This document shows positions 3,386-30,388 of a DNA stretch of 30,664 nt, one piece after another. The notes beneath the pieces are model-generated. The model had not been told where the DNA came from. It saw only the letters and a list, made by a program, of their open reading frames with translations, and ran no database searches. Origin of the DNA: a virus. Its lineage: Duplodnaviria > Heunggongvirae > Uroviricota > Caudoviricetes. Position 1 is the stretch's first letter. Every line of letters starts with the position of its first letter. The position numbers and the translations under genes were made by a program. The stretch is from IMG/VR virus record IMGVR_UViG_2802429251_000007, positions 1 to 30,664 of that record; one strand, given 5' to 3'.

Positions 3386-3411
3386 CTCAATCTGTTATCC
3401 GGGGCTATATT
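3382..3411 (+). promoter_or_regulatory. PR'-like late promoter: -35 TTGACT overlapping the Q stop, 18-nt spacer, -10 TATATT. Probable Q utilisation region.
   Basis: Hexamers read directly. Position after Q matches lambdoid PR'/qut. Confidence 0.45.
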
Positions 3412-3473
3412 CCTCACGCGCCAGCAAAATCTGGCGTCGGGATTGGCGTCCCGGATGTTTACGGAGCGATATG

Positions 3474-3495
3474 AGACGCGCCCGCGTCTTTTTTC
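3474..3495 (+). terminator. tR'-like rho-independent terminator. It would yield a short (about 75-nt) 6S-like late RNA unless Q acts.
   Basis: AGACGC-GCCC-GCGTCT stem-loop followed by TTTTTT. Confidence 0.6.
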
Positions 3496-3666
3496 ATATC
3501 GTTTGCACAGTCACATTCGCGATTTATGGCGGGCTGTGTGGGGGAGCCGAAAGGCTCGCCGGTTTCCGTACCCGGTTACGCCAACCCTGCACAGTTCGCC
3601 ACCAGTTCGATTGGCGTCGTCGGTGGCGATAATTTCCAAATGTACGGAGTTATCGTTATGACCACT

Positions 3667-3729: not shown

Positions 3730-4005
3730 GTGGCTTCTGTTTCTATCAGCTGTCCCTCCTGTTCAGCTACTGACGGGGTGGTGCGTAACGGCAAAAGCAC
3801 CGCCGGACATCAGCGCTATCTCTGCTCTCACTGCCGTAAAACATGGCAACTGCAGTTCACTTACACCGCTTCTCAACCCGGTACGCACCAGAAAATCATT
3901 GATATGGCCATGAATGGCGTTGGATGCCGGGCAACTGCCCGCATTATGGGCGTTGGCCTCAACACGATTTTACGTCACTTAAAAAACTCAGGCCGCAGTC
4001 GGTAA
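3730..4005 (+). CDS. insA: IS1 InsA, 91 aa.
   Basis: [43 protein letters not shown]... is the canonical InsA sequence. Confidence 0.95.
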
Positions 4006-4427
4006 CCTCGCGCATACAGCCGGGCAGTGACGTCATCGTCTGCGCGGAAATGGACGAACAGTGGGGCTATGTCGGGGCTAAATCGCGCCAGCGCTGGCTG
4101 TTTTACGCGTATGACAGTCTCCGGAAGACGGTTGTTGCGCACGTATTCGGTGAACGCACTATGGCGACGCTGGGGCGTCTTATGAGCCTGCTGTCACCCT
4201 TTGACGTGGTGATATGGATGACGGATGGCTGGCCGCTGTATGAATCCCGCCTGAAGGGAAAGCTGCACGTAATCAGCAAACGATATACGCAGCGAATTGA
4301 GCGGCATAACCTGAATCTGAGGCAGCACCTGGCACGGCTGGGACGGAAGTCGCTGTCGTTCTCAAAATCGGTGGAGCTGCATGACAAAGTCATCGGGCAT
4401 TATCTGAACATAAAACACTATCAATAA
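3924..4427 (+). CDS. insB: IS1 InsB frame, expressed as an InsAB' fusion by -1 frameshifting at A-AAA-AAC (3981-3987).
   Basis: ...[45 protein letters not shown]... is the canonical InsB sequence. AAAAAAC present at 3981-3987. Confidence 0.9.
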
Positions 4428-4450: not shown

Positions 4451-5086
4451 TGTTGAAACTCTCTCCCCGATCACCCATAACCAGATTCCTGTTATTACCA
4501 CCGAACTTTTGGCGCAGCTTTACGGCACTGAGTCGGTGCGTATTCGCCAGAATCATCATGAGAACAAAGTACGCTTCGTTGAAGGGAAACACTTTTTCAA
4601 AGTTGTTGGTAATGACCTTAAAGAATTGCGGGTCGCTTTAAACTACTCACAAAATCCAGTTTCACCCAAAGCCCGCTCCCTCATCCTCTGGACAGAACGA
4701 GGCGCAGCACGCCACGCCAAAATGCTCGAAACCGATCAGGCGTGGGATGTGTTCGAAAAACTGGAAGACTGCTATTTCAGTCAAAAGGATCCGTCAACGC
4801 CAGTTTCATGCCAGAAAAGTTACGACACGCGAGTTCTCTGTTATCAGAGAGGCGGTGTCACTGTTTCCACAATTCAGTTACGGGATGATGATATTGTTAT
4901 TTCCCTTGAGTCATGGCTGGAACTGGCGAGAGCCAATGGTTGGTTTGTTGTTCGCAGAGATAAACTGGTGGAAAGGTTGATGCAGCTTTAAAAAAGTTCT
5001 TGCATTTTTGCACATAAACTGCTTCAATTCCGGTACGCTTCGCAAAGCTGTATCGCGAGGCGAACCAAGCGCATGAACTTTACCAG

Positions 5087-5354: not shown

Positions 5355-5430
<76 letters not shown>

Positions 5431-5433
5431 TAT

Positions 5434-5508
<75 letters not shown>

Positions 5509-5806: not shown

Positions 5807-5926
5807 CATTTTTTTCATGGCTCGCTACGGCGGGCCTTTTTCATATCCTCGCCACACCCGGCGCATATCACATCAAATAACGCCGCGCAAAAGGCATCTG
5901 CGGGTGCCTTTGACGGGGTGTTTTTA

Positions 5927-5950
5927 CGGGCCGCTGGTGGCCCTTTTTTA
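5927..5950 (+). terminator. Rho-independent terminator immediately before the holin ribosome-binding site.
   Basis: GGGCC-GCTGGT-GGCCC followed by TTTTTTATTT. Confidence 0.6.
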
Positions 5951-5968
5951 TTTACAGGAGAAAAACGT

Positions 5969-6361
5969 ATGTCTGAACCCTTATCTGGTTCCGGCACGGC
6001 TGCGGCGCTCGGCGGGGCGACGGTATTCGGGCTGTTTACCGGAACGGATTTCGGGATTGTGTTTGGTGCGTTCGCCGGGGCGTTATTTGTGGCAACGATG
6101 CCGCAGGCGCTTTCAGTCTGGCGTGTGGTGGCGCATTTTTTGGTGTCGTTTATCGTCGGCGTGCTGGGGGCGCGCGTGCTGTCAGCCTGGATTGCATCAA
6201 AAACAGGGTATGACGGTACATCGGCAGATGCGCTGTGTGCGGTGCTGGTATCGGTGGTGTCGGTGAAGATTCTGTCGTTCATCCACCAGCAGGATATTGC
6301 ATCGCTGGTGTCCGGTGTGTTCTCCCGCCTGCGGGGCGGAGGTGGCGGCAATGTTAAGTAA
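5969..6361 (+). CDS. Putative holin, 130 aa, multi-transmembrane, Gly/Ala-rich.
   Basis: MSEPLSGSGTAAALGGATVFGLFTGTDFGIVFGAFAGALFVATM... ATG 5969 follows an AGGAG Shine-Dalgarno. First gene of the lysis block before an endolysin. Confidence 0.6.
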   Translation: MSEPLSGSGTAAALGGATVFGLFTGTDFGIVFGAFAGALFVATMPQALSVWRVVAHFLVSFIVGVLGARVLSAWIASKTGYDGTSADALCAVLVSVVSVKILSFIHQQDIASLVSGVFSRLRGGGGGNVK

Positions 6362-6626
6362 CCTTCCCGGATTGCTGAATGTGGCGTTATGCACGGTTAT
6401 CGTGCTGACGCTCTTTTTTTATCGTCGTCGCGATTCCAGACATAAGCCGCTGATGTCATGGCTGGCCTGGCTGCTGATGCTGCTGTATGCCTTTGCACCA
6501 CTCAGCTATCTGTGCGGTCGCCCGTTAGCGGCGAACTGGCTGGCGGTGGGGCTTAATCTGCTGTTCTGCGTGCTGGTGATACGTGCACGCGGGAACGTTT
6601 CAAAAATCCTTTCATTCCGGAGGTGA
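6351..6626 (+). CDS. Second small membrane protein of the lysis cassette, 91 aa, 3 predicted TM segments. Holin or antiholin partner.
   Basis: MLSNLPGLLNVALCTVIVLTLFFYRRR... GGAGG Shine-Dalgarno before ATG 6351. Overlaps the holin 3' end. Confidence 0.5.
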   Translation: MLSNLPGLLNVALCTVIVLTLFFYRRRDSRHKPLMSWLAWLLMLLYAFAPLSYLCGRPLAANWLAVGLNLLFCVLVIRARGNVSKILSFRR

Positions 6627-6628
6627 GC

Positions 6629-7006
6629 ATGTCGGGTAAATTCAGATTCAGTCGTCGCAGTGAAAAAAATCTGGAGGGCGTTAAACCACAGCTGGTTGCT
6701 GTCGTTCGCCGTGCGCTGGAGCTGACGGAGGTTGATTTCGGTATTACGGAAGGGCTGCGCACGAAAGAACGCCAGAAACAGCTGGTCGCGGAAGGGAAAA
6801 GCCAGACCATGAACAGCCGCCACCTGACCGGTGATGCGGTGGATGTTGTTGCCTACATTGGCAGCCAGGTGTCATGGGACTGGCCTCTGTACGAGAAAAT
6901 CGCGCAGGCATTTAAGCAGGCTGCCGCAGAGCTGGGAACTGCCATCGAATGGGGCGGGGACTGGAAAACACTGAAAGACGGACCTCACTTTCAGTTGAAA
7001 CGCTGA
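6629..7006 (+). CDS. Endolysin, peptidase M15 family (zinc D-Ala-D-Ala carboxypeptidase or L-Ala-D-Glu endopeptidase-like).
   Basis: The H..D and trailing H motifs (SRHLTGDAVDVV ... DGPHFQL) are typical of M15 endolysins. GGAGG Shine-Dalgarno 5 nt before ATG 6629; a GTG at 6623 is the alternative start. Confidence 0.7.
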   Translation: MSGKFRFSRRSEKNLEGVKPQLVAVVRRALELTEVDFGITEGLRTKERQKQLVAEGKSQTMNSRHLTGDAVDVVAYIGSQVSWDWPLYEKIAQAFKQAAAELGTAIEWGGDWKTLKDGPHFQLKR

Positions 7007-7020
7007 TAACCAGGTGTGTT

Positions 7021-7203
7021 ATGAGCCGAAAACACTGGACACACAGAATGCCGCGAACGGCGGCGAAATGGGCACTGGTAGCGATACTGGTGCCTTTTTT
7101 ATTGGTGGGGTGCGTCAGCCTGGATAAGGCGCGCCAACTTTTAGATACAGCTTCTCAGGTCTGCAAAATTGTCGACAGTGTTCGGCAGTGTATGCAGAAC
7201 TGA
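7021..7203 (+). CDS. Lysis-associated lipoprotein, 60 aa, in the Rz1/o-spanin position.
   Basis: MSRKHWTHRMPRTAAKWALVAILVPFLLVGC... has signal peptidase II lipobox LVGC. Directly follows the endolysin. Confidence 0.5.
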   Translation: MSRKHWTHRMPRTAAKWALVAILVPFLLVGCVSLDKARQLLDTASQVCKIVDSVRQCMQN

Positions 7204-18819: not shown

Positions 18820-19007
18820 CGTTTAACAGCCTGCCGGACGGGCTGTCCTACCTTCTCAATCCGGTTGACGCCGGGTTAATTCCTTATACAGCACTTAAAG
18901 ATGGCTCTGTCGATTTGTACGACATTGCTCTCTTGAATGACCATCTGGCGGTAAAAGCGGATAACCAGCGGCGCATTGAGAAATGGAGAGAGGATAATGA
19001 ACGCTGA
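18367..19007 (+). CDS. Tail assembly chaperone frameshift product (GT-like), made by a -1 shift at 18765-18771 and extended by about 79 codons.
   Basis: The -1 frame stays open from the slippery site A-AAT-TTT to TGA 19005-19007, overlapping the tape measure start. Arrangement matches lambda G/GT. Confidence 0.55.
18765..18771 (+). other. Candidate -1 programmed frameshift heptamer A-AAT-TTT (XXXYYYZ type), within an A3T6 run.
   Basis: Zero-frame codons GGA-AAT-TTT-TTG. The shifted frame is open for 79 further codons. Confidence 0.5.
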
Positions 19008-20985
19008 AACTATTAAAGATTTCCTCGTCTCGCTTGGCTTCAGTGTGGATGATGCAGGAGCGAAAAAGTTCGGTTCTGTCCTCGCCGGTACAACGGCAAA
19101 TGTCATCAAAATGGGGCTGGCCGTTGAAGGAGCCGCGCTGTCCGTGGTGGCCTTCACGGCTAAGATCGCCTCCGGTCTGGATAATCTTTACTGGGCGTCA
19201 CAGCGCACCGGCGCGACAGTCCAGGGAATTCAGTCTATTGGCTATGCGGTTTCGCAGGTTGGCGGCAGCGTGGACGCTGCGCGATCTTCTCTGGAAAACC
19301 TCTCCCGGTTTATTCGTAATAATCCCGGGGCGGAGGGATTTCTGAATCGCCTGGGCGTACAGACCCGTGATGCCAGCGGTAACATGCGTGACATGGCCGC
19401 TATCTTTACGGGCGTTGGACAGAAACTCAGCAGCATGCCGTATTACCGGGCTAACCAGTATGCGCAGATGCTGGGCATTGACGAAAATACCCTTATGGCG
19501 ATGCGCCGGGGTGTGGGTGGCTTCTCCGGGCAGTACAGCGCAATGGCGAAAGCTATCGGCTTCAATGCTGACGAGGCGGCCAGAAGCTCCAACAAATTTA
19601 TGACCTCCTTGCGTGAGTTTAGCGCGATGGCAGGCATGGCCCGTGACAAAATCGGCTCTAATCTTGCGGGTGGGCTTGCAGGTTCGCTGGACACCCTGCG
19701 CCGCCATATCCTGGACAACTTCCCTCGTATCGAGCAGACCCTGACGAAAGCCATAAAAGGCATTCTGGCGCTCGGGGATATTATCGGGCGGCTGTTCTTC
19801 AGACTGATTGAGGGGACATCAGGCCTTATCACCTGGTGGCAATCGCTGGATAAGCAAACGCGGGAGTTGATCTCGCTGTTTGGCGCACTGACGATTGCGC
19901 TGCGCATTCTGAACAGTACGTTCTGGATGTCGCCGGTTGGCCTCATTACCGCGCTGGCGGCGGGGATTGCCCTCCTGTGGGAGGACTATCAGACCTGGAA
20001 GGAAGGCGGCGACAGCCTGATTGACTGGGGCAAGTGGAAACCGGAGGTCGATGCCGCGCTGAAGATGGTTCGTGACCTTAAAACGACCGTTAACGATCTG
20101 GCGAAAGCGCTGGCGAAACTACTCAATATTGACCCCAAATCATGGTCCCTGAAGTGGGATTTCAGCAACTTCATCGACCAGATGGGCGAATTCAGCAAAA
20201 TGCTGAACATGATCGCCGACCTGCTCAACGCTATCAAAGATGGACGCTGGGCTGATGCCGTCAGCATCGGCAAACAGATACTTAATCAGGGCAGCGAAAA
20301 TCCGTCAGCGATGCCGATGGTTACAGACAGCGCTAACAGTACTGCCGACTGGATTAAAGAGCACTGGGGATTCGATCCCCGCAGTGTGGGCCGGACGGTA
20401 CGCGGCTGGTTTGGTGATGATGAGCCGGAACAACATGCACAGGCTACGAAACGAGGAGAACGGAATAACAATCCGGGAAACCTTAATTTTGCTGGTCAGG
20501 CGGGGGCTTCTCTTGAACACCCGGGCGGGCGATTTGCCAGATTTGAAACTGCCTTTGATGGATTACGGGCTCTTGCTCGTCAGTTAATGTTGTACGCCGG
20601 GCGAGGAATAAACAGTGTGGAAAAAATTATCTCTACCTGGGCACCTGCCTCTGATAATAACAACACAACTGCGTATATCAGGGCTGTATCGCAACGACTG
20701 GGAGTGGATCCCCGGGCTGCCCTGAATATGAGCGATCCGAAAACCATGTCAGCATTGATGAGCAGCATTATCCAGCATGAAAATGGAAGAAATATCTATT
20801 CTCGAGAGCTGATTAATAAGGCTGCCGTGGCGGGAATTAGTGGCAAAATGACAGAGGTTAACCAGCAAAATACCTACCACATTTACGGTGGCGGAGATCC
20901 GCACGCTGTCGGTAATGAGGTTGCACGTCGGCAACAGTCTGCAAATGCTCAGGTTATGCGAAGTAATCAGGTGAGGGTGGGTTAG
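18997..20985 (+). CDS. Tail tape measure protein, 662 aa.
   Basis: Largest tail ORF, helical and repetitive. GAGAGAGGA Shine-Dalgarno before ATG 18997 (the track start at 18976 is less likely). Confidence 0.75.
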   Translation: MNAETIKDFLVSLGFSVDDAGAKKFGSVLAGTTANVIKMGLAVEGAALSVVAFTAKIASGLDNLYWASQRTGATVQGIQSIGYAVSQVGGSVDAARSSLENLSRFIRNNPGAEGFLNRLGVQTRDASGNMRDMAAIFTGVGQKLSSMPYYRANQYAQMLGIDENTLMAMRRGVGGFSGQYSAMAKAIGFNADEAARSSNKFMTSLREFSAMAGMARDKIGSNLAGGLAGSLDTLRRHILDNFPRIEQTLTKAIKGILALGDIIGRLFFRLIEGTSGLITWWQSLDKQTRELISLFGALTIALRILNSTFWMSPVGLITALAAGIALLWEDYQTWKEGGDSLIDWGKWKPEVDAALKMVRDLKTTVNDLAKALAKLLNIDPKSWSLKWDFSNFIDQMGEFSKMLNMIADLLNAIKDGRWADAVSIGKQILNQGSENPSAMPMVTDSANSTADWIKEHWGFDPRSVGRTVRGWFGDDEPEQHAQATKRGERNNNPGNLNFAGQAGASLEHPGGRFARFETAFDGLRALARQLMLYAGRGINSVEKIISTWAPASDNNNTTAYIRAVSQRLGVDPRAALNMSDPKTMSALMSSIIQHENGRNIYSRELINKAAVAGISGKMTEVNQQNTYHIYGGGDPHAVGNEVARRQQSANAQVMRSNQVRVG

Positions 20986-21572
20986 TGGATATTCTCTCTA
21001 CACTTTTTCATCAGCAGAGCAGAAAAATAGGAATGATTGTTCCCAGTGTTGTTATTTCAGAGAAGCATACAGATATGCTTGAAATAACCGAGCATCCGGT
21101 AGAGGTTGGGGCTGCTGTCGCTGATCATGCCTATAAAAAACCGTCAGAAGTGGTGATGGAGGTTGGTTTCGCCGGTGGCGGCACATTGCTGGATTTTGCC
21201 AGTAACCTGACGGCTACCAGCCTGCTCGGCCTGAGTCCTCAGCAGACGTATCAGGAGCTACTGGATTTGCAGGAAAGCCGTATCCCCTTCGATGTGGTAA
21301 CCGGTAAACGGCTGTACAGCAACATGTTGATCCGGGCGCTGGAAGTGACGACGGACAAGACAACCGAAAATGTCCTGTCCGCCGTCCTTACCCTGAGGGA
21401 GGTCCTTATCTCCCGGACACAGCAGATTACCGTCGCGGATAAAACCAACATGAAGGAAGGGGCCAGCACGTCGGCGGTACAGAATAGCGGCAACAAAACC
21501 ACAAAGCCTCCAGATACTTCACTGCTGAAAAGCATTACGGGTAACGTGGCGTCATTACTGGGGGGCGGCTAA
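20985..21572 (+). CDS. Tail protein, 195 aa, in the post-tape-measure position (gpU/DNA-circulation-like slot).
   Basis: GTG start overlapping the tape measure TAG stop, with a GGTGAGGGTGGG Shine-Dalgarno. Confidence 0.4.
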   Translation: MDILSTLFHQQSRKIGMIVPSVVISEKHTDMLEITEHPVEVGAAVADHAYKKPSEVVMEVGFAGGGTLLDFASNLTATSLLGLSPQQTYQELLDLQESRIPFDVVTGKRLYSNMLIRALEVTTDKTTENVLSAVLTLREVLISRTQQITVADKTNMKEGASTSAVQNSGNKTTKPPDTSLLKSITGNVASLLGGG

Positions 21573-21874
21573 TGACAATTCAGGAAATTCCGCTGACAGC
21601 GGACAATCAGCAGTTCAGCATCGTCCTGGGTGGTGTCACCTGGCGGATTAGCATCATATGGCGCGATCTGTACTGGATTATGGACCTGCAGAACGACAGA
21701 GGGGAGCCGGTAATCTCCGGTATTCCTCTCGTCACTGGTGCTGACCTGCTGGCGCAGTACGCCTGTATGGGGCTTGGTTTTAAGCTGGTGGTGGTCTGTG
21801 ATGACAACACACAGGATTACCCCACAAAAACTGACCTGGGCGGTCGCAGCCATTTACTGGTATCAACGGAGTAA
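21572..21874 (+). CDS. Small tail/baseplate protein, 100 aa.
   Basis: TAATG-coupled ORF with a G-rich Shine-Dalgarno. Confidence 0.4.
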   Translation: MTIQEIPLTADNQQFSIVLGGVTWRISIIWRDLYWIMDLQNDRGEPVISGIPLVTGADLLAQYACMGLGFKLVVVCDDNTQDYPTKTDLGGRSHLLVSTE

Positions 21875-21876
21875 GC

Positions 21877-22941
21877 ATGTCACAGAACTGGATGAGACAT
21901 TTCGAGCTGCAGCTTGTGGACGGGAACGGTCAGGGAATTGAGCTAAGTGATTTCAAAGTCACCTTTACGATCGACTGGTTCAACATCAGCAGCGCGTCCC
22001 GGGTAGGGACTATCAAAATTTATAACCTCTCGGCAGATACTGTGAACCGAATCACTGGGAAGGAATTTTCGAAAGTGCGGCTGATTGCCGGTTACGACGG
22101 TATCGCGCCGGAGGTGGCGGCAAGCGACGTCGGGACCGTGCGCGAAGTCGACGCGGCGGACGTGGGCCAGACAGATGGCCGCAACTACGGACTGATTTTC
22201 AGCGGTGAAATTCGCTACTCGGTCACAGGAAAAGACAGTCCGGTTGATACCTACGTCCTGATTCAGGCAGCAGATACTGATCTGGCATTTGCCACCAGTA
22301 TAACCTCACAGACGCTGGCTGCCGGTTACACGGTCGCAGATGTGAACCGTGCGCTGATGAAAGACTTTGAGGCCAAAGGCGCGACCGAAGGACTGACGCC
22401 TGAAATGCCTGCTACCGTATACCCTCGAGGGCGGGTGCTGTTCGGCATGACACGGCATCTTATGGATAACGTGGCCGGACAATGTGGCGCAACATGGCAA
22501 TTTGTGGACGGTCAGCGCCAGATGGTGGCGAATAACGAGTATGTTCACGACGCGATTGTGCTCAACAGCGCCACCGGGCTTATCGGCATGCCGCAGCAGA
22601 CTATCGGCAACGGTGTAAACGTCCGCGCTCTTATTAATCCGAACATCCGGGTTAACGGGCTTATTCAGCTGGATCAGGCTTCCGTGTACCGCACCGCGCT
22701 GTCGAACAATGATATTGCGATGGCTGGTGGGCAGATCACCGACCAGAACACGGACGGAAATATCACGCTAAGCGGCACCACATCGCAGCCTGCCAGCATC
22801 GCAACGGATGGCGTTTATATTGTGCGCGGGATTATGTACACTGGCGACACAAGGGGCCAGGCGTGGTACATGGATATGATGTGCTTTGCTCGAGGTGCTA
22901 GTGATATTCCTAGCCAGTCAGCGATGAATCGAGGTGCATAA
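21877..22941 (+). CDS. Baseplate hub-like protein, 354 aa, gpD/gp44-like by position.
   Basis: Size and position before the spike/W/J/I block. GGAG Shine-Dalgarno. Confidence 0.45.
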   Translation: MSQNWMRHFELQLVDGNGQGIELSDFKVTFTIDWFNISSASRVGTIKIYNLSADTVNRITGKEFSKVRLIAGYDGIAPEVAASDVGTVREVDAADVGQTDGRNYGLIFSGEIRYSVTGKDSPVDTYVLIQAADTDLAFATSITSQTLAAGYTVADVNRALMKDFEAKGATEGLTPEMPATVYPRGRVLFGMTRHLMDNVAGQCGATWQFVDGQRQMVANNEYVHDAIVLNSATGLIGMPQQTIGNGVNVRALINPNIRVNGLIQLDQASVYRTALSNNDIAMAGGQITDQNTDGNITLSGTTSQPASIATDGVYIVRGIMYTGDTRGQAWYMDMMCFARGASDIPSQSAMNRGA

Positions 22942-22943
22942 TA

Positions 22944-23669
22944 GTGAGCAGGCTTGCGATAACCACAATCGTATTTTCTCTTTTTTTAACTTCATGTAGT
23001 TGGGATCCTAATGGTGCTAAAGCGCAGGGAAAATGGCTATCCCAAAAAAATGAAGAAAAACAAGCGTACGATAAGCAAGTTGAGGAGAGCCAGAAAAGCA
23101 GGCTTCAAATACAGCGCGAAGAAAAGTCTCAATTTGAAGTTTCACATCCAGAGGTTATCGTTGCTGGTGTTGGGAACGAGCTTAAAAGTAAGGGTGCAGA
23201 ATCTTTGCGAGATGCGTACAACAGCATTCCATTCGTAACTCGTTATCCGGGAACCACGGACCCTAACAAAGTTTATACCTATGTCGGTGACTACAAATTA
23301 AATTTGCAACTGGTTAACACATCTGTGCTTTCTCAGATCTCAGATTGCAAACGCATTTCAGCGTATGCCGATGTTGATATTAATCGTACTTGCTTCAATC
23401 AAATTGGAAATGATTTGAGTTTGTTTGCATCTGTAATTAAAGACAAAAATATTACTGGAATTGCAAAAAAAGCAGCTCTACGAGATTCAACTTACGGAAC
23501 TAAAATTGATTTTGGTCATGCTGCGCGTTTAGCAAAAATGCATGCCACTTTATGCCAAAAGCAGGGCGGTAAAGGATTTGTCAAAATGTCGACTGTAGCT
23601 GTGCCTTGCGGCTCTTCAGGCGATGTAATTAACTATCGAAGCGCCGGTAAGATGGGGCTTATAAACTGA
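22944..23669 (+). CDS. Lipoprotein moron, 241 aa. Lipobox LTSC. AT-rich cargo inside the baseplate operon.
   Basis: MSRLAITTIVFSLFLTSCSW... GTG start 7 nt after a GAGGTG Shine-Dalgarno. Composition is visibly more AT-rich than the flanking tail genes. Its own terminator follows. Confidence 0.6.
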   Translation: MSRLAITTIVFSLFLTSCSWDPNGAKAQGKWLSQKNEEKQAYDKQVEESQKSRLQIQREEKSQFEVSHPEVIVAGVGNELKSKGAESLRDAYNSIPFVTRYPGTTDPNKVYTYVGDYKLNLQLVNTSVLSQISDCKRISAYADVDINRTCFNQIGNDLSLFASVIKDKNITGIAKKAALRDSTYGTKIDFGHAARLAKMHATLCQKQGGKGFVKMSTVAVPCGSSGDVINYRSAGKMGLIN

Positions 23670-23690
23670 AAAGATCAAATTAGTCACATA

Positions 23691-23716
23691 AAACCCGCCG
23701 GATGGCGGGTTTTTTG
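23691..23716 (+). terminator. Rho-independent terminator after the lipoprotein moron.
   Basis: CCCGCC-GGAT-GGCGGG followed by TTTTTT. Confidence 0.8.
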
Positions 23717-23734
23717 CTTTCTGGAGCCTACTAA

Positions 23735-24487
23735 ATGGCAGTATCTGACCAGACCCGCAGCGGCGACCTTGCCGAAACATTTAAATCTGAACGGGAAACA
23801 ACAAAGAACCAGATCCGTGTCGCCTTGCCAGGCATTGTTCAGTCATTCGCTCCTGATGCGGTGACGGCGGTTGTACAGCCTGCTATCCGTTACGTTGAAA
23901 TTGATAACGACGGCAACCGCATTACCAAAAATTACCCATTGCTGGTGGATGTGCCAGTGGTATTCCCGCGTGGCGGAGGCTGTACGCTAACGTTTCCAGT
24001 TAAAGCCGGTGATGAATGCCTGGTGATTTTTGCCGATCGTTGTATTGATTTCTGGTGGCAGAGTGGCGGGATACAGGAGCCGGTCGATGACCGGGTGCAT
24101 GATTTATCGGATGCTTTCTGTATCGTCGGGCCGCAGTCTCAGGCGCAGAAAATAAGCGGAATAAGCACCAGTGGCGCGCAGCTGCGTAGTGACGACGGCA
24201 GCACCTATTTTGAGCTTAATCCTGATACCAGGAAAATTAAAATTGTCGCTCCGGGTGGTCTTGATGTGGTTGCCCCTCTGGCTGATTTTTCTGAGAAAGT
24301 AACCATTCATGGCCTGTTAACCTGGATGGGGGGCATGGTGGGGTCTGTTGTTTCTGGTGTGGCTTCAAAAATCACTGGTGCTGTTGAGTTTTTGGGTAGC
24401 GTGAAGGCTAACGGCAAGCTAATCGATGATACGCACACTCATGGTGGTGTTCAGCGCGGTGGAAGCAATACCGACGGAGTAAACTGA
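23735..24487 (+). CDS. Baseplate central spike protein, gpV/Gp138-like, with C-terminal HxH (THTHGG) motif.
   Basis: Resembles GPV_N-type baseplate assembly protein V. His-x-His near the C-terminus. Confidence 0.6.
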   Translation: MAVSDQTRSGDLAETFKSERETTKNQIRVALPGIVQSFAPDAVTAVVQPAIRYVEIDNDGNRITKNYPLLVDVPVVFPRGGGCTLTFPVKAGDECLVIFADRCIDFWWQSGGIQEPVDDRVHDLSDAFCIVGPQSQAQKISGISTSGAQLRSDDGSTYFELNPDTRKIKIVAPGGLDVVAPLADFSEKVTIHGLLTWMGGMVGSVVSGVASKITGAVEFLGSVKANGKLIDDTHTHGGVQRGGSNTDGVN

Positions 24488-24840
24488 TGCGATACAGACG
24501 TGAAGACGCCGATGGCGATTACACCTTTGGCAGCGGTGATGATACCTGGCTGATTAACTCACCGGAGGCCGTGGCGCAGGCGGTAAAAACGCAATTCGAA
24601 TTGTGGTATGGGCAATGGTTTCTAGACACCACCGAAGGGACTCCGTGGATCCAGTCCGTACTCGGTAAGCAGAAGCCGGAAACCTACAATCTGGCGATCC
24701 GTAAGCGCATCCTCGAAACGCGGGGCGTTAAATCAATCCTCTCTTTCAATACTACAGTGGATACCACGACCCGACGTGTCATGTTTTCCGCTGAAATCGA
24801 CACTCTTTATGGAATAACGACTGTTACATCGGAGGCGTAA
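24487..24840 (+). CDS. Baseplate wedge protein, gpW/gp25-like, 117 aa.
   Basis: Size and position between the V-like and J-like genes. TGATG coupling. Confidence 0.5.
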   Translation: MRYRREDADGDYTFGSGDDTWLINSPEAVAQAVKTQFELWYGQWFLDTTEGTPWIQSVLGKQKPETYNLAIRKRILETRGVKSILSFNTTVDTTTRRVMFSAEIDTLYGITTVTSEA

Positions 24841-26039
24841 TGGCTCTGAACCTTGATTCTCTCGGTTTATCTGCAAAGGTAACCGCGGAGGGGATCAGTG
24901 CGCCTGATTATCAGACGATACTCAGCACCCTGATTGGCTATTTTCAGCAGATTTATGGCAGTGATGCCTACCTCGAACCGGACAGCAAAGACGGCCAGAT
25001 GGTGGCTCTGATGGCGCTGGCGATTCATGATGCCAATAATATGGCGATAACTGTCTACAACTGTTTTTCACCGGCAACCGGCTATGGGGCTGCACTGACC
25101 AGTAACGTGAAAATAAATGGTATTTCACGTAAAGGCGCAACGAATTCTACGGTTGATTTGCTTCTTACAGGAACTGCCGGAACAACCATCATTAATGGCA
25201 GCGTGAAAGACAGTAATAATGTGATATGGCGTTTGCCTGCTTCAGTGGTGGTCGGCGTGGATGGTACAGTGATGGCGACCGCAACATGTTCCGTCAGTGG
25301 TGCAGTGGCGGCGCTGGCTGGAACTATCACTGAAATTAATACGCCAACCCGTGGCTGGGTTTCGGTAACTAATCCTGCTGCGGCTACTGTGGGCACTCCG
25401 GCAGAAACTGACGCTGAGTTACGTATCCGCCAGTCGCAAAGTGTTGCGTTGCCATCAATAACCCCATTTGAAGCACTGGATGGTGCTGTTTCTAATGTTA
25501 CCGGTGTAACCCGCCACAAACTCTATGAAAACGATACTGGTTCGGAGGACGGTAACGGGTTACCGCCACACTCTGTTGCTGTAATTGTGGATGGCGGTGA
25601 TGTGACGGATATTGCTCAGGCTATCAGAGGGAATAAAGGCCAGGGGACAGCCACTCACGGTACAACATCCGTTACGGTTCCGGATAAATACGGCAATCCC
25701 CATGTAATCAAATTCTCGCGTTCCAGTGATGTACCTGTTTATGCCCGGATTAAATTAAAAGTTTTTACGGGTTATACCTCACAGATAGGGCAGCAGATCC
25801 AGCAGGCTATTTCCGGCTATATCAATAGTCTGATGATTGGTGATTCGGTCCTTTTAAGTCGCATTTACTCACCGGCGAATCTTGGCGTGGTGAGTGGCGG
25901 GAATGCACGCTATTACGATATTCAGGAACTGACGATTGGGAAATCCCCGGGGGCTTTGTCGTCATCAAACATTGATATCAGATACAACGAATCTGCGTCC
26001 TGTACCCCGGAAAATATCGTTATAACGGTGGAGTCATGA
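24840..26039 (+). CDS. Baseplate J-like protein (gpJ/gp6 family).
   Basis: 399 aa. Position and similarity to Baseplate_J proteins. Confidence 0.65.
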   Translation: MALNLDSLGLSAKVTAEGISAPDYQTILSTLIGYFQQIYGSDAYLEPDSKDGQMVALMALAIHDANNMAITVYNCFSPATGYGAALTSNVKINGISRKGATNSTVDLLLTGTAGTTIINGSVKDSNNVIWRLPASVVVGVDGTVMATATCSVSGAVAALAGTITEINTPTRGWVSVTNPAAATVGTPAETDAELRIRQSQSVALPSITPFEALDGAVSNVTGVTRHKLYENDTGSEDGNGLPPHSVAVIVDGGDVTDIAQAIRGNKGQGTATHGTTSVTVPDKYGNPHVIKFSRSSDVPVYARIKLKVFTGYTSQIGQQIQQAISGYINSLMIGDSVLLSRIYSPANLGVVSGGNARYYDIQELTIGKSPGALSSSNIDIRYNESASCTPENIVITVES

Positions 26040-27792: not shown

Positions 27793-28370
27793 TGGAATTC
27801 AGAATGAGTGAACAACCACAGACCATAAAAATTTATAATCTGCTGGCCGGAACTAATGAATTTATTGGTGAAGGTGATGCATACATTCCACCTCATACAG
27901 GTCTGCCAGCAAACAGTACCGATATTGCACCGCCAGATATTCCGGCTGGCTTCGTGGCTGTTTTCAACACTGATGAGGCATCGTGGCATCTCGTTGAAGA
28001 CCATCGGGGTAAAACCGTCTATGACGTGGCTTCCGGCGACGCGTTATTTATTTCTGAACTTGGCCCATTACCGGAAAATGTCACCTGGTTATCCCCGGAA
28101 GGGGAGTTTCAGAAGTGGAACGGTACATCTTGGGTGAAAGATGCAGAAGCAGAAAAACTGTTTCGGAGCCAGGAGGCGGAAGAAACAAAAAACAGCCTGA
28201 TGCAGGTAGCTAGCGAGCATATTGCGCCACTTCAGGATGCTGTAGATTTGGATATTGCGACGGAAGAAGAGGCATCGTTACTGGCTGCATGGAAGACATA
28301 TCGGGTATTGTTGAATCGTGTTGATACAACAGTAGCAGCGGATATTGAGTGGCCAGTCGCCCCACAATAA
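27792..28370 (+). CDS. tfa: Tail fibre assembly chaperone, lambda Tfa-like.
   Basis: [59 protein letters not shown]... is nearly collinear with lambda Tfa. Confidence 0.9.
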
Positions 28371-28379
28371 AAAGAAAAA

Positions 28380-28410
28380 GCCATCGATAGAAATATCGAT
28401 GGCTTTATGT
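28380..28410. terminator. Bidirectional terminator between convergent tfa and the acetyltransferase gene. Stronger for the minus strand.
   Basis: GCCATCGAT-AGAAAT-ATCGATGGC hairpin. T5CT5 run on the minus-strand side, TTT on the plus side. Confidence 0.7.
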
Positions 28411-28413
28411 GCT

Positions 28414-28986
28414 CTATTTATACAATACAACACCGCTCTTTTTAGTTATATATGTGCAGTTCGATGGTATATCTTTATTTATAAAAGACATTGCGCCTAT
28501 TTTTACATTATCCCCAATTTTACGTGATAATCCAATGATGCAACAATTAGCTCCGATATCAACGTTACTACCAATTTTTACTCTTGAACCAGGTATGTCA
28601 CCATCTATCTGTCCAATCGTAGTATTCTGTCGTAACACCAGATTTTCACCAGCATCAACAGCAAAATGAACAACAATTCCAGCGTGATGGGGAATTGTTA
28701 GCCCTTTTCCAATTTTTGCTCCCAGTCCAATCTCGCAACCAAATTTGTTAATTATTTTATTGTTTAACTTTTTAGCAGCTTTCTTATGTAATTTATTACC
28801 ATTAATATACATTTCGTTAGCCAGCCGCCACCAGAAAAGGAAATTCCTGTTACGTTGTTTTTTTTCTCTGAAAAGCCTCCAGATATCCATATACTCCCGC
28901 CGTATTACTTCAGATTTCCAAAAGCTTTTTAAATCAGAAGAATTCCCAAGTAAAACAAAATGAATTGCTATTAAGTAAGATAACAC
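28414..28986 (-). CDS. Hexapeptide-repeat (left-handed beta-helix) acetyltransferase, CysE/serine O-acetyltransferase-like, 190 aa. AT-rich cargo.
   Basis: IGLGAKIGKGLTIPHHAGIVV...IGSNVDIGANCCIIG...IGDNVKIGAMS are hexapeptide repeats with a CysE-like core. GTG start 6 nt after an AAGGAG Shine-Dalgarno. Very low GC. Confidence 0.7.
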   Translation of the reverse strand: MLSYLIAIHFVLLGNSSDLKSFWKSEVIRREYMDIWRLFREKKQRNRNFLFWWRLANEMYINGNKLHKKAAKKLNNKIINKFGCEIGLGAKIGKGLTIPHHAGIVVHFAVDAGENLVLRQNTTIGQIDGDIPGSRVKIGSNVDIGANCCIIGLSRKIGDNVKIGAMSFINKDIPSNCTYITKKSGVVLYK

Positions 28987-29015
28987 GATAATCTCCTTAA
29001 TTATTACTTTCGACC

Positions 29016-29045
29016 ATATTAGCCCTAAATTTAATGAAGTGTAAA
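29016..29045 (-). promoter_or_regulatory. Candidate sigma70 promoter for the acetyltransferase: minus-strand -35 TTTACA, 18-nt spacer, -10 TAATAT.
   Basis: Hexamers read on the reverse complement. Confidence 0.4.
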
Positions 29046-29138
29046 ATCTGGTTGTTTGTTATTTAAAAGCTAAGTTCGTGATACTTTACGGATGCTGAGG
29101 AGAGCATTATACGATATTTTTCTGCACACTCATAGTAA

Positions 29139-29267
29139 CAAACACCAGAACAATGGGCGCAGGCCGGGCGATTAATTGCATCAGGCGTTCCTCGCCAGAA
29201 GGTGGCTATTATCTATGATGTTGGTGTGTCAACTTTGTATAAGAGGTTTCCGGTCGGAGATAAATGA
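29139..29267 (+). pseudogene. pin: 3' remnant (about 42 codons) of a Pin/Gin/Hin-family DNA invertase: the C-terminal HTH only.
   Basis: Translation TPEQWAQAGRLIASGVPRQKVAIIYDVGVSTLYKRFPVGDK* closely matches the C-terminus of E. coli e14 Pin. Stop codons lie immediately upstream. Confidence 0.75.
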
Positions 29268-29564
29268 AACCGTAGCACGTCGTATGCAAGAACGTGCCAC
29301 GGCTGGCTGATGGACGTTCGATAGCGCGAGTTTGAATGAAAATCAGCCGGCGATGATTTTACATAATTGCTACGGAATTATTCAATACAGGAATTGCTTG
29401 TGTATGCATGGATTGACCTGAAATATTCCCGAAAATTTCTCTAAAAAACTCGAAAAAAATGGTAACTAATTGAATGCATTGGTATGCAATGCTATGTGTT
29501 CAGGATTGAAAAATGCGCGCTTTTTTATTTAATATATTGATTTTAAATGATTTTATTTCTCGTT

Positions 29565-29597
29565 GACGAATACAGGAATCGTGTTCGGTCTCTTTTT
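29565..29597 (+). ncRNA. sdsR: 3' terminator fragment of the sRNA SdsR (RyeB). Probable prophage attachment-site core and host junction.
   Basis: GACGAATACAGGAATCGTGTTCGGTCTCTTTTT matches the 3' end of E. coli SdsR (…GACCGAATACAGGAATCGTATTCGGTCTCTTTTT) with two differences. The upstream SdsR body is absent. pphA follows, as in E. coli K-12. Confidence 0.65.
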
Positions 29598-29731
29598 ATC
29601 TGTTAAAAGCCAGAAGCATTCCCTTCGCTGACTTTATAGTCAACCATAACACACACTCTACTGTCTGAGTCCAGCGTTTTTTAACATTCTTGTTAAGATT
29701 ATGTGATCTTTAGCGCGGGAGGAAAATATTG

Positions 29732-30388
29732 ATGAAACAGCCTGCGCCCGTTTATCAGAGAGTTGCGGGTCATCAATGGCGACATATCTGGCTTTCAGGC
29801 GATATACACGGTTGTCTTGAGCAGTTGCGCCGCAAATTATGGCATTGTCGTTTTGATCCGTGGCGAGATTTACTTATCTCAGTGGGAGACGTTATCGATC
29901 GTGGGCCGCAAAGTTTACGTTGCCTGCAGTTACTGGAACAACATTGGGTTCGTGCGGTAAGAGGCAATCATGAACAGATGGCGATGGATGCGCTGGCATC
30001 CCAGCAGATGTCATTGTGGTTGATGAATGGCGGCGACTGGTTTATTGCGCTGGCAGATAATCAACAGAAACAAGCGAAAACGGCGCTGGAAAAATGTCAG
30101 TATTTGCCCTTTATTCTTGAAGTACACAGTCGCACCGGCAAACATGTTATTGCCCATGCCGATTATCCGGATGATGTTTATGAATGGCAAAAGGACGTCG
30201 ATTTGCATCAGGTCTTGTGGAGCCGCTCACGATTACGTGAAGGCCAAAAAGGGCAGGGAATTACAGGTGCTGATCATTTCTGGTTTGGTCATACACCGTT
30301 GCGCCATCGCGTGGATATTGGCAACCTGCATTATATTGATACCGGTGCTGTCTTTGGGGGAGAACTGACTCTTGTGCAATTGCAATAA
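29732..30388 (+). CDS. pphA: Serine/threonine protein phosphatase 1 (host gene).
   Basis: MKQPAPVYQRVAGHQWRHIWLSGDIHGCLEQLRRKLWHCRFDPW... is near-identical to E. coli PphA/PrpA. GGGAGG Shine-Dalgarno. Confidence 0.95.
   Translation: MKQPAPVYQRVAGHQWRHIWLSGDIHGCLEQLRRKLWHCRFDPWRDLLISVGDVIDRGPQSLRCLQLLEQHWVRAVRGNHEQMAMDALASQQMSLWLMNGGDWFIALADNQQKQAKTALEKCQYLPFILEVHSRTGKHVIAHADYPDDVYEWQKDVDLHQVLWSRSRLREGQKGQGITGADHFWFGHTPLRHRVDIGNLHYIDTGAVFGGELTLVQLQ

Follow-up and report, generated by a model that had tools for sequence, protein, structure and literature searches.

What does a predicted lipoprotein do in the middle of a baseplate operon? This question is raised by the IMG/VR virus record IMGVR_UViG_2802429251_000007 (Duplodnaviria; Heunggongvirae; Uroviricota; Caudoviricetes), of which the stretch from position 1 to 30,664 was analyzed at its full length of 30,664 nucleotides and is called the window in the following. 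Between the genes of the baseplate hub and of the gpV-type spike, the window encodes a protein of 241 amino acids (aa) with a lipoprotein signal. An earlier note on this DNA, made from the letters alone, had taken the gene for a horizontally acquired moron with its own terminator, and had named superinfection exclusion or receptor masking as likely functions. Here, we analyzed the gene, its family and the hub-spike junction of related phages computationally. The lipoprotein gene is a long-term resident of an exchangeable slot, swapped among related phages and not recently imported, its product represents an undescribed family, and superinfection exclusion by this protein appears plausible.

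The lipoprotein gene and its predicted product

The following features were assigned to the gene and its product:

22944-23669, + strand: lipoprotein gene, 241 aa, GTG start, TGA stop (open reading frame (ORF) list, substitution rates, homologs)
22931-22936, + strand: Shine-Dalgarno-like GAGGTG within the hub 3′ end, 7 nt ahead of the GTG (read from the sequence)
22944-22997, + strand: predicted signal peptide with lipobox LTSC, codons 15-18 at 22986-22997 (sequence)
23007-23144, + strand: predicted long alpha-helix rich in K, E and Q, residues 22-67 (AlphaFold2 model; predicted local distance difference test (pLDDT) 87-94 there)
23145-23666, + strand: predicted globular alpha/beta domain, residues 68-241, with four conserved cysteines and several motifs

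What the earlier note had read at this locus, i.e. a 241-aa lipoprotein with an LTSC lipobox and four further cysteines, a start 2 nt downstream of the hub stop codon (TAA, 22939-22941) and the GAGGTG in the hub 3′ end, agrees with the ORF list and the sequence. The ratio of nonsynonymous to synonymous substitutions (dN/dS) was 0.09-0.13 for orthologs at 72-86% identity, and therefore the ORF is a real gene under purifying selection. In the N-terminus of the protein, MSRLAITTIVFSLFLTSC, a short basic segment is followed by a hydrophobic core and by the lipobox (MSR-LAITTIVFSLF-LTSC), and L15-T16-S17-C18 matches the lipobox pattern used here for signal peptidase II substrates ([LVI][ASTVI][GAS]C closing an N-terminal signal peptide). 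We infer Sec-dependent export and lipidation at Cys18, the predicted first residue of a mature protein of 223 residues. Lipoproteins with Asp at position +2 are retained in the inner membrane; since Ser and not Asp is present at +2, the protein is probably sorted to the outer membrane.

The AlphaFold2 model (pLDDT 85.6; predicted template modeling score 0.72) consists of one long helix, ~7 nm if straight, followed by the globular alpha/beta domain with the motifs HPEV, FVTR, CKRISAY and FGHAARLAKMH. The four further cysteines (135, 150, 204 and 222) are invariant or nearly so across the family, and two disulfides are likely. Other residues conserved family-wide are hydrophobic ones, K175, R195 and Y141, while H68, E70, H192 and H200 are not universal and the histidines are conserved among close relatives only. 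This set of conserved residues suggests binding rather than enzymatic activity for the globular domain. The lipobox is found in nearly all of the ~35 family members; one carries an ordinary signal peptide instead, Asp does not occur at +2 in any of them, and some are 354-378 aa long with an additional N-terminal domain.

The family is very small. A set of 5.8 billion proteins yielded 14 clusters at 90% identity, a set of 1.84 billion yielded 26 representatives at 50% identity, and a search with a 29-sequence profile added few distant members and no named family. Neither the lipoprotein nor divergent members matched Pfam or NCBIfam, and the lipoprotein matched neither PADLOC-DB 2.0, even at E <= 10, nor PDB entries by sequence; its model had no fold match among PDB structures. 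Faint signals were obtained with PHROGs (phrog_3727, unknown function, E 0.008) and in a BFVD fold search (the 324-aa viral protein H9C1A6, E 3e-3, TMq 0.44). Deposited phage genomes and plasmids, searched as DNA and by tblastn, also with a divergent member as query, contained no homolog, and the scan of species-representative genomes matched Limnobaculum allomyrinae only. Membership in the Llp, Cor or Bor families was rejected for lack of sequence or fold similarity. The suspicion of an undescribed family was thereby supported; accessory lipoproteins of the envelope that phages encode in exchange hotspots are, as such, a known kind of protein.

Among 5426 complete Escherichia coli genomes, the lipoprotein gene is present in 12 and the hub gene in 306; carriers of the lipoprotein gene include clinical and animal isolates. 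E. coli NRZ14408 has a 99.7% identical copy in a prophage beside ybhB-bio, labeled 'hypothetical protein' in RefSeq. Near-identical copies (99.6-99.7% at the DNA level) in the RefSeq genomes H2, H5 and H6 (3 of the 12) are labeled 'HMG-box domain-containing protein', an annotation that is most likely an artifact of the K/E/Q-rich helix.

An exchangeable slot between hub and spike

The location between baseplate hub and V-spike stated in the earlier note is supported by profile matches of both neighbors:

21877-22941, + strand: baseplate hub gene, 354 aa (phrog_196 'baseplate hub', E 3.7e-88; Pfam E217_GP41 24.4 bits, just below the cut-off of 27 bits)
22885-23685, + strand: exchangeable cassette, different from phages with at least 96% identical flanks (junction alignments with 689R2, SEN34 and YP3)
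23690-23719, + strand: intrinsic terminator, conserved right border of the slot (hairpin 23690-23713 plus T-run)
23735-24487, + strand: gene of the gpV-type membrane-puncturing spike, 250 aa (PF18352, E 1.3e-42; PF18946 Apex)

Phages vB_EcoM-689R2, 606R2 and 611R5, with near-identical flanks (96% nucleotide identity), carry other genes at this position, as do the less similar phages SEN34 and YP3. Homology to relatives without the lipoprotein stops on the left at 22884 (hub megablast, query base 1008), and the last ~19 hub codons, from 22885 on, lie in the swapped tract; on the right, homology restarts at ~23686, exactly at the terminator hairpin. Meaningful repeats were not found at the cassette borders.

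For a survey of the slot, the best 80 of 515 hub-matching IMG/VR contigs by likeness to the window hub were used, which yielded 78 usable loci including the window, all with hubs at least 95% identical. The slot was empty in none of them and contained 390-2610 bp. In all 78 loci the first gene starts within a few nt of the hub stop codon and encodes an exported protein, namely a 113-aa secreted protein (phrog_3443, unknown function; 63 loci), a lipoprotein of the window type (8 loci) or a 158-aa signal-peptide protein (7 loci). Zero to three more genes follow, including a YafO-family toxin with partner, TPR plus HEPN-like pairs, a PycTM-like membrane protein, DUF4282 and DUF2335. An hhalign comparison of the 158-aa protein with the lipoprotein gave a weak match (probability 44%), and the 113-aa protein was also found at the same slot of the more distantly related Klebsiella phage Mulock. 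Relatives lacking the lipoprotein gene at the junction, the case the earlier note had wanted checked, are thus common (70 of the 78 have other cargo), but the junction itself is never empty. Tape-measure protein (TMP), Dit, plug, hub, spike, W and J can be at least 95% identical, and yet unrelated proteins are encoded at the slot position.

Next to the left border, the hub residue following a conserved 'MMC' (22885-22887 in the window) is Glu in 65 of 65 carriers of the 113-aa protein and in 7 of 7 carriers of the 158-aa protein, whereas 41 of the 42 loci with the lipoprotein have Phe, Leu, Ile or Ala there. For close relatives the pattern is linkage, because the swapped tract includes this residue; for distant ones that explanation does not apply.

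The slot is not mentioned in the SEN34 paper or in a prophage transcriptomics paper, and no description of a hub-spike hotspot was found in the literature searched. In pbunaviruses, an ORF (gp42 of Pseudomonas phage E217; contig L121, 9595-10128) is present between the hub gp41 and the tail tip gp43, overlaps the hub stop codon and is absent from the published virion atlas; as an analog it was rejected, being unrelated and having no signal peptide.

The lipoprotein family keeps its position over large distances. All 36 loci with both flanks (34 IMG/VR loci detected with the family profile and two further contigs) have a homolog immediately downstream of the hub and upstream of the spike, down to 28-48% lipoprotein identity, and in two loci cut by the contig end the spike is still downstream. 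The AT-richness noticed earlier is real, with a guanine-plus-cytosine (GC) content of 0.408 (third codon positions, GC3, 0.335) compared to 0.547 (0.623) for the hub gene, 0.514 (0.494) for the spike gene and 0.501 for the whole window. Its reading as a sign of horizontal acquisition was not supported: the gene is foreign in composition, and relatives with at least 95% identical tail proteins carry other genes at its place, but a recent import is contradicted. The distinct lipoprotein genes are 7.5-18 GC points below their own hub gene in 26 of 26 cases, and since homologs down to 28% identity hold the same position and are all AT-rich, AT-richness is a lasting family trait and not a sign of recent arrival. 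Deep lipoprotein alleles are swapped on similar backbones; at one locus (L017) the hub is 91% identical and the lipoprotein only 48%.

For the terminator, the earlier note was right about its strength and probably wrong about its ownership. The hairpin has a 10-bp stem with 6 G-C pairs and a 4-nt loop, followed by a T-run, and its folding energy is -18.9 kcal/mol (z = -3.7 compared to shuffles). Because phages 689R2 and SEN34 have the same hairpin ahead of the spike gene behind different cargo, it appears to be a fixed slot border common to unrelated cargo and not specific to the lipoprotein gene; loci L004 and L005 have analogous hairpins.

A scan of the + strand from 20900 to 25000 for the sigma-70 consensus gave no promoter match. 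A relaxed scan gave weak 8-9/12 matches only, all within a stretch of conserved hub protein sequence; non-consensus promoters are still possible. The gap between the hub stop codon and the lipoprotein gene is -8 to +11 nt at all loci. With its start so close to the hub stop codon and negative promoter scans, the gene is most likely co-transcribed with the late tail genes, with translation coupled to the hub, and the claim of a moron in the strict sense was not supported. The operon is placed among the late ones under control of the Q antiterminator, which is encoded in the window as well as in the NRZ14408 prophage. The slot terminator would stop transcripts unmodified by Q ahead of the spike gene, while Q-modified late transcription would pass through it. 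RNA families were not detected in the lipoprotein region by an Rfam scan.

Compared to classical morons (HK97/lambda; lambda bor and lom; JBD26 tab), the locus resembles them by deviant composition (GC 0.408 vs. 0.547), a downstream terminator and a seemingly extra gene between otherwise neighboring genes. It differs in that no own promoter was found, that the terminator appears to be that of the slot, that hub and spike are adjacent in 0 of 78 close relatives, and that the family holds its exact position over deep divergence. With the defence hotspots of P2/P4 type, the slot shares the fixed position, the conserved borders and the exchange of diverse cassettes including toxin- or defence-like ones; it differs by its location within the baseplate operon and by always having an exported protein first.

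Possible functions of the lipoprotein

Our favored reading, to which we assign a probability of roughly 0.4, is that the lipoprotein is a late-co-expressed, outer-membrane-anchored periplasmic binding protein which blocks phage entry after adsorption. On its ~7 nm helix it would hang into the periplasm, where the disulfide-stabilized binding domain would sit near the peptidoglycan layer and bind a component that incoming contractile tails make use of once they have adsorbed. The step thereby blocked would be outer-membrane puncture, the action of the wall-degrading domain of the TMP, or channel formation. This would amount to superinfection exclusion, by which the infected or lysogenic cell would be protected. 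One candidate for the periplasmic target is the C-terminal muralytic domain of the TMP, whose gene spans 18976-20985:

20449-20844, + strand: wall-degrading C-terminal part of the TMP, residues ~492-623 (PDB 7q47_A 'Endolysin', E 2.2e-13; 9vvp_L Gp29, E 2.3e-20; PHROG 'tail injection transglycosylase')

A post-adsorption target is favored because the same lipoprotein (98-99% identical) occurs together with tail fibers that are only 44-75% identical. Furthermore, no other gene of the module diverges as much as that of the lipoprotein, which has a mean pairwise identity of 0.46 compared to 0.56-0.74 for the tail genes, and yet is under purifying selection, which we count as conflict-type evolution in favor of exclusion. 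The toxin- and defence-like cargo of the slot (YafO, HEPN-like, PycTM-like) was counted as support as well. Ltp of Streptococcus phage TP-J34, which targets the TMP, is the closest mechanistic analogy. It is a lipid-anchored prophage protein blocking a post-adsorption step (PMC3952083), but it acts in a Gram-positive host, is surface-exposed, belongs to the lysogeny module with its own expression and has no sequence relation to the lipoprotein. A precedent is Tab of JBD26, whose defence gene sits within a late operon and yet is expressed from the prophage (PMC10884400).

Several points weigh against exclusion after adsorption. The lipoprotein has no homology to any exclusion protein, and late-only expression, if true, would leave the resting lysogen unprotected. 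No tail protein clearly co-varies with the lipoprotein (mirror-tree Spearman 0.16-0.38 for eight tail proteins at 25 loci), and the type of the first slot gene is independent of TMP and spike alleles, so that no co-variation backs the TMP as target. The exported first protein in 78 of 78 close relatives could equally mean a function in the phage's own cycle. Finally, a distant homolog (P0041, 213 aa, lipobox, 23% identity; contig L124, 7001-7642) has no phage genes nearby and is a lone gene among metabolic and transport genes on a 107-kb Logan contig (SRR27257775); as it lies outside any phage, the C-terminal domain also exists as a chromosomal lipoprotein.

In a further reading, which we regard as rather improbable, the first slot genes would encode obligatory but interchangeable 'self-immunity' factors acting on the tail tip. 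The lipoprotein, the 113-aa phrog_3443 protein and the 158-aa signal-peptide protein would then be three unrelated solutions, each neutralizing in the periplasm the puncturing or wall-degrading tail tip, e.g. the muralytic domain of the TMP. By analogy, T4 Spackle, a periplasmic inhibitor of the tail lysozyme gp5, is likewise an exported protein encoded beside a puncturing device, and periplasmic immunity proteins of type VI secretion systems encoded next to vgrG bear the same likeness to the slot proteins. This analogy has its limits, as none of them is homologous to the lipoprotein and the latter shows no co-variation with the TMP.

Receptor masking of the Llp/Cor type, where the lipoprotein would bind the phage's outer-membrane receptor, block homologous adsorption and spare progeny from debris, appears unlikely to a similar degree. 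The T5 llp gene and the cor genes of phi80, N15 and T1 also adjoin tail genes. Like them, the gene studied here encodes a predicted outer-membrane lipoprotein within a tail cluster, is probably expressed late with the tails, and plausibly has a phage-excluding role. The precedent does not hold beyond this: neither sequence nor profile searches linked the protein to any family, its fold matched nothing in the PDB, the 223 mature residues are ~3-4 times the size of Llp or Cor, the gene adjoins hub and spike and not the receptor-binding protein, and the near-constant lipoprotein does not co-vary with the strongly different fibers alongside it, which argues against receptor-specific masking.

We give no better chance to a lysogenic conversion or host fitness factor with a Bor-like role (serum resistance, adhesion, envelope stress) that would be expressed from the prophage. 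An AT-rich accessory gene followed by a terminator, which would insulate downstream late genes, fits this idea, as do the presence in clinical and animal E. coli isolates and the free-standing chromosomal homolog described above. It is opposed by the lack of a detected promoter together with the tight hub coupling, by the rarity of the gene in E. coli (12 of 5426 genomes), and by the strict hub-spike linkage over deep divergence, which is hard to reconcile with it.

Even less probable is a helper of lysis or egress, i.e. a periplasmic or outer-membrane factor that would aid envelope disruption in a spanin-like role. Probable late expression, a long helix in an outer-membrane lipoprotein with superficial likeness to spanin periplasmic domains, and some exported protein at the slot in every close relative would fit. 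However, the gene is ~16 kb away from the holin/endolysin cassette (5918-7006), the protein lacks a C-terminal hydrophobic or transmembrane segment and a partner gene, and three unrelated proteins alternate at the slot on the same backbone. Nor is it a spanin itself; besides these points, the NRZ14408 prophage carries the lipoprotein alongside a lysis cassette that already has holin, lysozyme and an Rz-like 'lysis protein'.

A baseplate structural protein or cytoplasmic tail-assembly chaperone, for which the location in the baseplate operon, the probable translational coupling to the hub and the non-atlas ORF of pbunaviruses (E217 gp42) might speak, can be dismissed as very unlikely, since the conserved lipobox signal and two likely disulfides imply export from the cytoplasmic assembly site, since unrelated proteins replace the lipoprotein on tails that are at least 95% identical, and since gp42 is unrelated and has no signal peptide. 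The lipoprotein is accordingly regarded as an accessory protein and not as part of the virion, in agreement with the earlier note.

The surrounding prophage and the relevance of the slot

The window represents an E. coli prophage of a SEN34-like (Brunovirus-type) temperate myophage with lambdoid regulation. Its early and regulatory genes, among them NinB and the Q antiterminator, are lambdoid, a holin/endolysin cassette is present, and the contractile tail is of the SEN34 (Brunovirus)/E217/Pam3 type. Upstream of the hub, TMP, a Dit-like protein and a Pam3 gp18-like plug are encoded, and downstream of the spike the baseplate genes W, J and I are followed by the fibers.

Several further elements were observed in the window. 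A match to the Rfam sok antitoxin RNA (1166-1340, 108.6 bits) implies a hok/sok-type module in the early region. Matches to the C4 and isrK antisense RNAs (3405-3606) are followed by the insertion sequence IS1 (InsA/InsB ORFs, 3730-4427) and by an antirepressor gene without its first ~25 codons (4509-4991). Downstream of Q, a P1-like ant immunity region was apparently disrupted by IS1, and the prophage may therefore be regulatory-defective. Genes of tRNA-Thr (tgt) and tRNA-Gly (tcc) are located at 5355-5508 between this region and the lysis cassette. Directly after the endolysin gene, a 60-aa ORF with the lipobox LVGC (7021-7203; phrog_7528, unknown function) may encode a small lipoprotein associated with lysis, for which an Rz-type partner was not apparent. 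A second AT-rich stretch (28135-29800, GC 0.35-0.42) follows the tail-fiber assembly gene and contains a match to the Rfam IS009 RNA (28135-28333) and, on the minus strand, a hexapeptide-repeat acyltransferase gene (28414-28986), which is likely a surface-modifying conversion gene.

Prophage-encoded envelope proteins that exclude phages shape the host range and affect phage therapy, and few families are known from Gram-negative bacteria. The lipoprotein is a compact, directly testable candidate for such a protein, without known relatives or a recognizable fold. The hub-spike slot in which its gene resides is located inside a baseplate operon, has an exported protein first and often toxin- or defence-like cassettes next, and ~5.6% of the complete E. 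coli genomes carry the tail module concerned. If the proteins of the first position do not act on their own tail tip, the lipoprotein gene is one more uncharacterised accessory gene. If they do, the baseplate operons of a widespread group of enterobacterial temperate myophages would contain a conserved functional position that had gone unrecognised, and a conserved step in myophage biology would be revealed.

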